This document shows, one piece after another, positions 5,331-6,712 of a stretch of 8,586 nt of DNA. The notes under the pieces were generated by a model, which saw only the letters and a list, made by a program, of their open reading frames with translations, was not told the DNA's origin and ran no database searches. How positions within the stretch are numbered: the stretch's first letter is position 1; each line of letters starts with the position of its first letter. Origin of the DNA: a virus (lineage: Monodnaviria > Loebvirae > Hofneiviricota > Faserviricetes > Tubulavirales > Inoviridae); the IMG/VR virus record IMGVR_UViG_2690316267_000001; one strand, given 5' to 3'. Position numbers and translations under genes: made by a program.

Positions 5331-5648
5331 TTAACCTTTTATTTCAGTGATCCCACCATCTGATGAAATATTATAAGTCACACCTTCTCTACCCTCCATT
5401 GACCAGACACGAACATATACAGGGATTTGAACTAATTTCCCCGTAAAACTATTGGCTTGATTCATGACTCCGGCGTTCACAAGGGACTGTGATACACGAA
5501 TAATTATTTGGTCTTGCTTAGTACCGCCAAAACCATCAGGGATCTCTAAACCGATACCAATTTCATTGTAATAGCCCTGACCATTGACTTTATTACGCTG
5601 ACGAGCACCAAGCATTTTACCTTTTACAAAAAGACCATAATTAGACAT
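5331..5648 (-). CDS. gV: putative ssDNA-binding protein at the gene V position (105 aa)
   Basis: ORF between gII and gVII with AGGAG 6 nt upstream of the ATG. Function assigned by synteny; the sequence does not obviously resemble M13 pV from memory. Confidence 0.7.
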   Translation of the reverse strand: MSNYGLFVKGKMLGARQRNKVNGQGYYNEIGIGLEIPDGFGGTKQDQIIIRVSQSLVNAGVMNQANSFTGKLVQIPVYVRVWSMEGREGVTYNISSDGGITEIKG

Positions 5649-5659
5649 ATCACGCTCCT

Positions 5660-5974
5660 TTAATGCCAGTTACTGGCATGTGAAATACGGTTGTAATCAA
5701 AAATAAAACCTTTCTCATAAACCCATGTAGGGATTTGGGCTGGTTTAGCTTCAAGTGTTCTTACTAATGGAACAACATTATTTGAATCAGGGGATTCACA
5801 ATAAAAATTAATATCTATCCCGAAAGACAATAATTCTTTTCGGTGCCTGTAAAATGTTGGCTTTGGAAGCATTTCTTTCATGTTTGCGCCCTGCTTCCAC
5901 AGTAAATATGTTGATTGTATTTTTCTCGGCAGTTTAACTATTTTTTCATCGGTCAAAATGGCATTTTGATTCAT
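5660..5974 (-). CDS. gX: candidate pX: in-frame internal start within gII (104 aa)
   Basis: Internal ATG at 5974-5972 in the gII frame preceded by GGGAG at appropriate spacing (AGGGAGAATAGAAATG on the minus strand); equivalent to the Ff gX arrangement. Confidence 0.4.
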   Translation of the reverse strand: MNQNAILTDEKIVKLPRKIQSTYLLWKQGANMKEMLPKPTFYRHRKELLSFGIDINFYCESPDSNNVVPLVRTLEAKPAQIPTWVYEKGFIFDYNRISHASNWH

Positions 5975-6712
5975 TTCTATTCTCCCTACATATTCAGAGA
6001 ATAATTTGTTTGGAGTATCGATATTCCAGTTACTGCCAAGCGTAAGGTTTAAGTCAATTAATTCTGTTGTTCTTAGCGTCAATTCAATTCGTAATTTATC
6101 TTTAGACCAGTCAAGTAAGCCAGCTTTAACAAACTCTTCTGCTATCTGGTGTCCTTTTTTACCAGAAATATGCTCATCATATTTTGAATAAAATTTCAGG
6201 CTCCACCGCCGGGAGTTTTTCCCTAAGTAAACAGTTCCACCTTTACCACAGGCGCGACCATGGCGAGTTTTAGCCTTGAATTCTGCGGCATATAGCCATG
6301 CGCGGACATTTTCCAGCGTTGATAATGAATACATGTAGTTAATATCAATGCGTGAGATCTTAAATTGCCCTGCCATTACCTGACGATAGGATGGTAGATC
6401 ATGAGGAATATGAAGTAATGCCAATATTCTTGCGTAAGCGGTTAATACCAGCCCCTGCAAATCATCGGAGCCAATAACAGAATGCCCCTGAAGAAATTTT
6501 GACGGATTTCCGTCAATATAAAGATGAGTTGCCCGGCCCTCCCCGTCTGATCCAACAGATCGTACTTTCATTGTGGATTCGTATGAACCGCGAACGGTCA
6601 ACCGCTTTACTGTTTCCCACTCCACTGCACCGTCAGCATCAACGCTGACGACACTACCGGCCGGTAACGGTCGGTGTGTGCAAGGAAGAATTCCGGTAAA
6701 CCAGTCGATCAT
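5660..6712 (-). CDS. gII: gene II rolling-circle replication initiator (nickase) pII, 350 aa
   Basis: Shares recognisable blocks with M13 pII (NPSKFLQGHSVIG vs SPAKVLQGHNVFG; ISRIDINY vs ISRIDATF; SNNVVPLVR vs CNNVVPLVR) but is otherwise divergent and shorter than the 410-aa M13 protein. Confidence 0.88.
   Translation of the reverse strand: MIDWFTGILPCTHRPLPAGSVVSVDADGAVEWETVKRLTVRGSYESTMKVRSVGSDGEGRATHLYIDGNPSKFLQGHSVIGSDDLQGLVLTAYARILALLHIPHDLPSYRQVMAGQFKISRIDINYMYSLSTLENVRAWLYAAEFKAKTRHGRACGKGGTVYLGKNSRRWSLKFYSKYDEHISGKKGHQIAEEFVKAGLLDWSKDKLRIELTLRTTELIDLNLTLGSNWNIDTPNKLFSEYVGRIEMNQNAILTDEKIVKLPRKIQSTYLLWKQGANMKEMLPKPTFYRHRKELLSFGIDINFYCESPDSNNVVPLVRTLEAKPAQIPTWVYEKGFIFDYNRISHASNWH

Follow-up and report, generated by a model that had tools for sequence, protein, structure and literature searches.

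Positions 5331-6712 of the IMG/VR virus record IMGVR_UViG_2690316267_000001, a sequence of 8,586 nucleotides (nt) assigned to the Inoviridae, hold exactly two minus-strand genes of a filamentous phage, gene V (gV; 105 amino acids, aa) and gene II (gII; 350 aa), which is the span that an earlier sequence-only reading of this DNA had delimited. The whole 8,586-nt stretch is called the window below. Its genes follow the canonical filamentous-phage order, with all recognisable virion, assembly and replication genes on the minus strand (Table 1). The element is a filamentous Escherichia coli prophage that combines coat and assembly genes like those of IKe, I2-2 and the UPΦ prophages with replication genes of the type found in I2-2, Ypfφ and CUS-1. 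We consider it very likely that gV and gII(X) at 5331-6712 form the replication module of a temperate Enterobacteriaceae filamentous phage that normally integrates at dif, and that the element is a product of cassette exchange.

The proteomes of M13, IKe and I2-2 were compared by blastp; UPΦ comparisons were made with UPΦ-type prophages, such as those of E. coli ECONIH2 and 20Y000092, and CUS-1 was taken from strain UTI89. The nearest intact prophage relative was locus L001. Window 105-7922 shows two differences in 7.8 kb from a prophage in E. coli SCPM-O-B-12142, and this intact relative, which adjoins hipBA, consists of tandem copies of a 9078-bp unit and carries a dif-like phage attachment site (attP). 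The genes gV and gII are annotated alike in the near-identical RefSeq prophage. The window is circularly permuted, since its two ends lie within a complete 768-bp insertion sequence, IS1.

Table 1. Genes and other features of the window in order of position (HTH, helix-turn-helix; ORF, open reading frame; ssDNA, single-stranded DNA; percentages are identities)
Feature	Coordinates	Strand	Assignment	Similarity and remarks
IS1, remaining 102 nt	1..102	-	insertion sequence	768 bp in total; terminal sequences at 7921 and 102
82-aa ORF	477..725	-	accessory, downstream of gIV	82% to CUS-1/Ypfφ ORF at same position
Long imperfect hairpin	828..882	-	candidate packaging signal	inverted repeat overlapping gIV stop; fold z = -2.6
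Gene IV	876..2141	-	secretin; PF00263, PF21305, PF03958	93% UPΦ, 73% I2-2, 71% IKe, 51% M13
Gene I	2149..3243	-	Zot-family assembly ATPase; PF05707	93% UPΦ, 63-65% I2-2/IKe (IKe 65%), 53% M13
Gene VI	3244..3585	-	minor coat; PF17537	96% UPΦ, 51-52% IKe/I2-2 (IKe 51%), 36% M13
Gene III	3585..4828	-	attachment protein	broken by 1-nt deletion near 4370
Gene VIII	4875..5117	-	major coat	81% UPΦ, 57% IKe/I2-2, 43% M13
Gene IX	5147..5242	-	minor coat	90% UPΦ, 50-57% I2-2/IKe (IKe 57%), 31% M13
Gene VII	5242..5328	-	minor coat	96% UPΦ, 70% I2-2, 67% IKe, no M13 match
Gene V	5331..5648	-	predicted ssDNA-binding protein, 105 aa, I2-2/Ypfφ type	PF17426, E 1.6e-51
Gene II	5660..6712	-	predicted rolling-circle initiator, 350 aa, short I2-2/Ypfφ form	PF05144, E 2e-72; PF05155, E 7e-33
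Candidate gene X	5660..5974	-	104 aa	in-frame internal start at Met247 of pII
Inverted repeat, 27-nt arms	6782..6838		candidate operator/promoter region	between divergent gII and HTH genes; arms 81% complementary
HTH repressor (Cro/CI, RstR-like)	6884..7330	+	PF01381, PF07022; homolog of Ypfφ YPO2273	phrog_3557 transcriptional regulator, E 7e-74
Conserved double hairpin	7337..7387	-	candidate cis element (origin or pII recognition site)	goes with I2-2-type gII
140-aa predicted membrane protein	7429..7851	+	accessory, function unknown	phrog_4174; no Pfam match
IS1, first part (insB, insA)	7921..8586	-	insertion sequence	continues at window 1-102

Replication genes

The gII product (pII) aligns with M13 pII at 24% identity over 324 aa (E 8e-8, blastp) and with IKe pII in two short blocks only, which bears out the sequence-only reading that it keeps just a few conserved blocks. 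The alignment with I2-2 pII covers the full length of the protein, at 57% identity over 344 aa (E 5e-153, blastp), and tblastn identities reach 96% for Ypfφ, 95% for CUS-1 and 88% for UPΦ. The protein belongs to PF05144 and PF05155, as do the pII proteins of Ff phages and IKe, and these are also the families of I2-2 pII. The PF05144 match extends over 231 residues here versus 275 in IKe pII, and the protein has the short form (about 345-350 aa) rather than the long Ff/IKe form of 410-421 aa. The candidate gene X begins at the same pII residue as the annotated gene X of I2-2; its ATG at 5974 is preceded by GGGAG, and phrog_17464, a family of 100-aa 'replication proteins', covers pII residues 247-346 end to end.

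The gV product (pV) separates from the Ff type still further. With blastp, a cut-off as loose as E<=10 still produced no match between it and the pV of M13 or IKe. It has no Pfam match to PF02303, the family of M13 and IKe pV, and falls instead into PF17426, like the pV of I2-2 and CUS-1. The I2-2-type and Ff/IKe pV families show no profile-profile similarity (hhalign probability 0.06%); the earlier impression that the protein in the gene V position does not resemble Ff pV was therefore correct. To I2-2 pV the identity is about 41-42% over the full length (E 2e-28), and in tblastn it is 96% to both Ypfφ and CUS-1 and 93% to UPΦ. When the pII sequence and the pV profile were compared with all PDB chains no matches were obtained, and the fold assignment of pV therefore rests on an AlphaFold2 (AF2) model. 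In this model (predicted local distance difference test score, pLDDT, 88.5) pV has, with high predicted confidence, an oligonucleotide/oligosaccharide-binding (OB) fold with a helical insert and its best fold matches are single-stranded DNA-binding protein (SSB) and PriB; the top-ranked matches are all cellular SSB and PriB, and the Ff gene V protein is not among the matches listed. The model predicts pV to be an SSB-like OB-fold protein.

The sequence-only reading had taken the replication block for a possible further variant. It is instead of the I2-2 type, as indicated by the identities of pII and pV to their I2-2 counterparts, the common Pfam families, the common gene X start and an intergenic hairpin described below. 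A comparison with 50,697 GenBank phage records showed this type of gII and gV in no cultured phage other than I2-2; the further matches are uncultured inoviruses. In E. coli roughly 165 prophages were found. With one genome taken for each species, pII identity is 96% in Yersinia pestis (Ypfφ) and in Klebsiella spallanzanii and 86-88% in Brenneria and Phytobacter. Two contigs in metagenome-assembled genomes of Aerococcus and Candidatus Nanosynbacter (L009 and L010) also encode pII 88-94% identical to that of the window; most likely these contigs are mis-binned.

Morphogenesis genes and module boundaries

The seven virion and assembly proteins are 50-73% identical to those of IKe and I2-2 and 31-53% to those of M13 (blastp). 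By identity, and not by the demarcation criteria of the International Committee on Taxonomy of Viruses (ICTV), they are nearer to the genus Lineavirus, which contains IKe and I2-2, than to the Ff phages. The statement in the sequence-only reading that pVIII, pVI, pI and pIV are close relatives of the M13 and IKe proteins is thus right for IKe (51-71%), while 'close' was generous for M13 (31-53% overall). Its comparison with the pattern of I2-2 relative to IKe also holds, as an IKe/Ff-like morphogenesis block adjoins replication genes that differ from those of IKe and Ff. The blastp identities, the split between Pfam families and the hhalign result place this contrast between replication and morphogenesis genes far above chance. 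No cultured phage shows uniformly high identity to all of the genes.

The proteins of the gVII-gIV block are 81-96% identical to UPΦ proteins (tblastn), and none has a match in CUS-1 or Ypfφ except pIV, which is only 27% identical to the CUS-1 secretin. In the opposite direction, the 83-aa, 77-aa, 520-aa, DUF2523 and Zot proteins of CUS-1 have no tblastn match in the window. The possibility that the element is CUS-1 itself is ruled out, as the UTI89 morphogenesis genes are without match.

Nucleotide alignments locate the change of affinity. Homology to CUS-1 covers window 105-797 and 5323-7922 (blastn), with identities of about 87% in gV-gII, 92-100% in the HTH gene and 100% in the membrane-protein gene, and homology to UPΦ covers window 873-6711 (83%) and 7345-7852 (93%). 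The start of gVII marks the boundary on one side, where the blastn high-scoring segment pair with CUS-1 begins at 5323. These alignments put the junctions at gV/gVII (about 5323-5330) and just past gIV (about 798-873). The exchanged unit therefore corresponds to the whole gVII-gIV virion and assembly cassette. The GC profile along the genome is uneven, yet it has no clean step at the module boundaries, and it was not used as evidence.

Of the 5426 complete E. coli genomes, 6 contain the hybrid junction between the 82-aa ORF and gIV, with identities of 91-100%. The recorded hosts of these strains are human, bat, red panda, mink and chicken; for one strain no host is given. This occurrence indicates that the hybrid is a minor but established lineage.

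Relation to known phages

I2-2 (Lineavirus I22, NC_001332; Stassen et al., 1992, PMID 1556749) has the same gene order, II(X)-V-VII-IX-VIII-III-VI-I-IV, and it shares the gII and gV types, the intergenic hairpin and the structural and assembly genes. It differs as a 6.7-kb non-integrating phage whose record has no annotated repressor or accessory gene and whose identities to the element are moderate throughout; it also has no dif site (PMC7307601). Because the II-to-IV block is collinear with that of I2-2 at a roughly even 41-73%, there is no mosaic signal against I2-2.

The UPΦ prophages are dif-integrated in tandem next to hipA, with core genes of the IKe/I2-2 kind in conserved order. This hallmark is seen in the window as well, though gIII is frameshifted. 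Their 140-aa ORF is 96% identical to the one found here. They differ by two ORFs after gIV, and the element has a CUS-1/Ypfφ-type repressor, 82-aa ORF and flanking intergenic DNA; its attP was lost to IS1, and the UPΦ core is about 15% diverged from it in nucleotide sequence. The two ORFs in question, of 102 aa and 77 aa in a UPΦ-type prophage, have no tblastn match in the window. They are probably the group-defining h1 and h2, which lie in a region that is intergenic in I2-2, IKe and M13 (PMC7307601). As these h1/h2-like ORFs are missing, the element is not a strict UPΦ virus.

Ypfφ of Yersinia pestis and CUS-1 of E. coli O18:K1:H7 (e.g. UTI89) resemble the element in gII, gV, the repressor and the 82-aa ORF, the counterparts of YPO2273-2275 being 99%, 96% and 96% identical in amino acid sequence, and CUS-1 is integrated next to hipA, like the intact relative. 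They differ in the virion, assembly and secretion block (YPO2276-2280), which is non-homologous or very distant to the block found here. The structural cassette of the element is therefore of the UPΦ type and the backbone around it of the CUS-1/Ypfφ type, which makes the element a hybrid that is neither strict UPΦ nor CUS-1. A functional likeness only is seen with the core and RS2 of CTXφ, where a divergent repressor gene, rstR, lies beside the replication genes rstA-rstB; XerCD-dependent integration at dif, tandem arrays and hybrids of co-resident prophages are also known there (as cited in PMC4266046 and PMC7307601). CTXφ differs by its toxin cargo, which is not present in the element.

Regulatory region and accessory genes

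A double-hairpin motif, GTGCAGTGTNNGTAATACTGCA followed by a second hairpin, lies upstream of gII and is found at window 7337-7387, where 52 nt align with the I2-2 intergenic segment 2666-2716 at 85% identity; it folds at z = -4.5. It was present in all nine of the fetched loci that have a full-length gII of the I2-2 type (9/9, I2-2 included), and it was not found in IKe or M13. The second stem carries compensatory changes (GTCTC...GAGAC versus GTACC...GGTAC). The motif is kept from I2-2 to Ypfφ, CUS-1, UPΦ and the Klebsiella and Brenneria prophages. We think that the double hairpin is probably the replication origin. In the window the repressor gene sits between this motif and gII.

The HTH repressor is 99% identical to its Ypfφ/CUS-1 counterpart; it is absent from UPΦ and has no tblastn match in I2-2. 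In Ypfφ, YPO2273 is a candidate repressor of the RstR kind, and disruption of YPO2274, whose product is the counterpart of pII, abolishes phage production (PMC4266046). We infer that the inverted repeat between gII and the repressor gene is a candidate operator and promoter region. A promoter-like site (6802-6774) lies inside this repeat; the total for that scan was not above chance.

The extra genes which the sequence-only reading had pointed out are the repressor gene, the gene of the 140-aa membrane protein, the 82-aa ORF and IS1. The 140-aa protein is 100% identical to the one of CUS-1 and 95% to that of a K. spallanzanii prophage, with no match in I2-2. Its 96% identity to UPΦ versus 88% for pII suggests that it is under selection or has spread recently. 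The 82-aa ORF is absent from UPΦ, has no match in I2-2, and occupies the site of the two UPΦ-specific ORFs. The long hairpin at the end of gIV is placed like the annotated morphogenetic signals of I2-2 (2260-2330) and IKe, and by this analogy it may serve as the packaging (morphogenetic) signal.

Lesions of this copy

The lesion of gIII is one missing A with respect to the intact 414-aa gene of NZ_CP144928, and it cuts pIII after the N-terminal receptor-binding domains. The IMG/VR contig IMGVR_UViG_2695420487_000001 (L014) carries the same lesion, so that the frameshift is probably genuine rather than a chance sequencing error. A gIII frameshift also occurs in one of the UPΦ copies of E. coli F11. 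The intact pIII (L001 7481-8725) consists of a PF21443 IKe-type pilus-binding domain followed by a PF05357 TolA-binding-type domain, with a linker built of repeats. The pilus-binding domain predicts that the phage depends on a conjugative pilus. Residues 1-203 of the protein share 56% identity with IKe pIII; its C-terminal part has no blastp match to IKe or I2-2 pIII, yet the last ~230 nt are about 67% identical at the nucleotide level. An 81-aa repeat-bearing ORF on the plus strand (4099-4344) was rejected as a gene, since it lies antisense to the gIII sequence that encodes the glycine-rich linker.

IS1, whose matches in the phage database span both window ends, stands in place of a 1259-bp segment that in intact relatives carries a 369-aa ORF and the dif-like attP (cf. 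L001 11820-13000). The 369-aa ORF of the intact relative is 100% identical to the CUS-1 copy. The dif-like site of the intact relative consists of the XerC arm GGTGCGCATAATG, a divergent spacer and the arm TTATGTTGAAA; the 28-nt E. coli dif was not found in the intact reference locus at <=3 mismatches, and the XerC arm alone is conserved. In the window no XerC-arm motif occurs at <=2 mismatches, and the IS1 end lies 8 nt from its expected position. Since L001 and L014 still carry the motif, the phage-borne dif-like site was lost to IS1 in this copy, which is no longer able to integrate by XerCD on its own.

No target duplication is visible at IS1. Except for a single mismatch the contig L014 is identical to window 8012-105, and it, too, has the IS1 junction at 7921; its other end has an intact attP and then the 3' end of the 369-aa ORF. 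L014 may thus be a precursor of the deleted form, and its structure, together with the missing duplication, fits a course of events in which IS1 first inserted and then brought about an adjacent deletion. The arrangement may otherwise be an assembly artefact or a chromosomal segment between two IS1 copies. Neither IS1/phage junction was found in the 5426 complete E. coli genomes; one of them was found in L014 and the other was not.

Discussion

One could argue that the element simply belongs to the UPΦ group and that its mosaicism does not exceed what is described in PMC7307601. Its core from gII to gIV is indeed collinear with UPΦ-type prophages at 83% nucleotide identity, ECONIH2, a case study of that paper, matches window 873-7852 at 85%, and the intact relative has the same dif/hipA location and tandem arrangement. 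However, the probable h1 and h2 are replaced by the 82-aa ORF of CUS-1/Ypfφ, the repressor is of a type absent from UPΦ, and gII-gV is closer to CUS-1 (about 87% in nucleotide sequence) than to UPΦ (about 80%). Moreover, the core proteins of published UPΦ viruses agree with one another at 98% identity or more, compared with 81-96% for the element. We therefore find this explanation very unlikely.

It is highly improbable, too, that no exchange took place and that gII and gV merely evolved faster by vertical descent from an Ff/IKe-like ancestor. The Pfam families that pII shares with Ff and IKe pII and its 24% identity to the M13 protein are compatible with such a descent, and both pV types may be OB-like folds. 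However, the same gII-gV pair (95-96% in amino acid sequence) stands beside an unrelated morphogenesis block in CUS-1 and Ypfφ, and CUS-1 nucleotide homology sets in only a few bases from the gV/gVII junction and stops just past gIV. The two pV families also lack profile similarity, and the pV model matches SSB and PriB, with no Ff gene V protein among the matches listed. As for a third type of replication module, distinct from both Ff/IKe and I2-2, the dissimilarity of pII and pV to the Ff/IKe proteins and a whole-window megablast against phage records that had no match in this region speak in its favour, but the full-length homology of both proteins to those of I2-2, the common Pfam families, gene X start and hairpin and the 95-96% identity to Ypfφ/CUS-1 leave it next to no chance.

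Cassette exchange is thus the explanation that we prefer, and several points have to be set against it. The nucleotide identity to CUS-1 is about 87% in gII-gV and 92-100% from the HTH gene to the membrane-protein gene, so more than one exchange event is likely. The exchange may have run in either direction and may be old or recent. Since pII shares Pfam families with Ff pII, long divergence and exchange are inseparable for gII alone. For the double hairpin, a role as minus-strand origin or as some other cis element is also conceivable. In the promoter and terminator scans the counts were at or near the chance level, the promoter total did not exceed it, and these counts were not used as evidence. 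Finally, the 8586-nt sequence may be a real circle or an assembly product.

The cassette exchange that we propose would join a replication module with its cis element, a repressor and CUS-1-type accessory genes to a complete Lineavirus/UPΦ-type gVII-gIV cassette. In such an element pII would nick the plus strand at its cognate origin, at or near the 7337-7387 double hairpin, and drive rolling-circle replication, pX and the SSB-like pV would sequester plus strands for packaging, and the divergent RstR-like HTH protein would repress gII via the 6782-6838 palindrome. We infer that the exchange took place between two prophage families whose tandem arrays occupy the same dif site. The present copy has lost attP and one accessory ORF to IS1, and its gIII is frameshifted.

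Arrays of this kind exist. E. coli F11 (NZ_CP076123, 1646700-1680000) has a head-to-tail row of four filamentous prophages beside hipA, first two copies of the UPΦ type and then two of the CUS-1 type, and accessory ORF sets are common to both types. Such arrays juxtapose gII-gV segments that are 80-88% identical, together with shared flanks. The F11 array is a natural substrate for hybrid formation, and hybrids between co-resident dif prophages are cited in PMC7307601. A more specific scenario, which we put forward tentatively and consider rather unlikely, is that a recent clean gVII-gIV swap occurred between the two dif-integrating E. coli families via F11-like arrays, and that the IS1-deleted attP is a step toward a non-integrating life like that of I2-2 and IKe, or a plasmid-like one. 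IKe and I2-2 have been proposed to arise from an integrating ancestor (PMC7307601). If this scenario is true and the circle of 8586 nt really exists as an episome, it would represent a natural intermediate on that route.

Module evolution in I2-2 was reportedly described by Stassen et al. as early as 1992. UPΦ and Ypfφ are known to share only genes II and V (>85%), the rest being I2-2/IKe-like, and this was ascribed to recombination (Shapiro and Putonti, 2020, PMC7307601). The modular split of gII and gV is therefore already published; the mosaic is real and it is not new. No later description of UPΦ/CUS-1 hybrids was found in the literature searched. What appears to be undescribed in that literature is the sub-lineage that has the repressor, accessory genes and flanks of CUS-1/Ypfφ around a UPΦ-like cassette with about 15% nucleotide divergence.

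Nothing in these findings overturns current understanding. For annotation, the protein in the gene V position would be better named an SSB-like OB-fold ssDNA-binding protein than an Ff-type g5p. The per-gene map indicates that filamentous phages of the Enterobacteriaceae swap replication, regulation and accessory cassettes against virion and assembly cassettes, and one replication module with its candidate cis element ties together I2-2 (1992), Ypfφ/CUS-1 (2002-2007) and UPΦ (2020).

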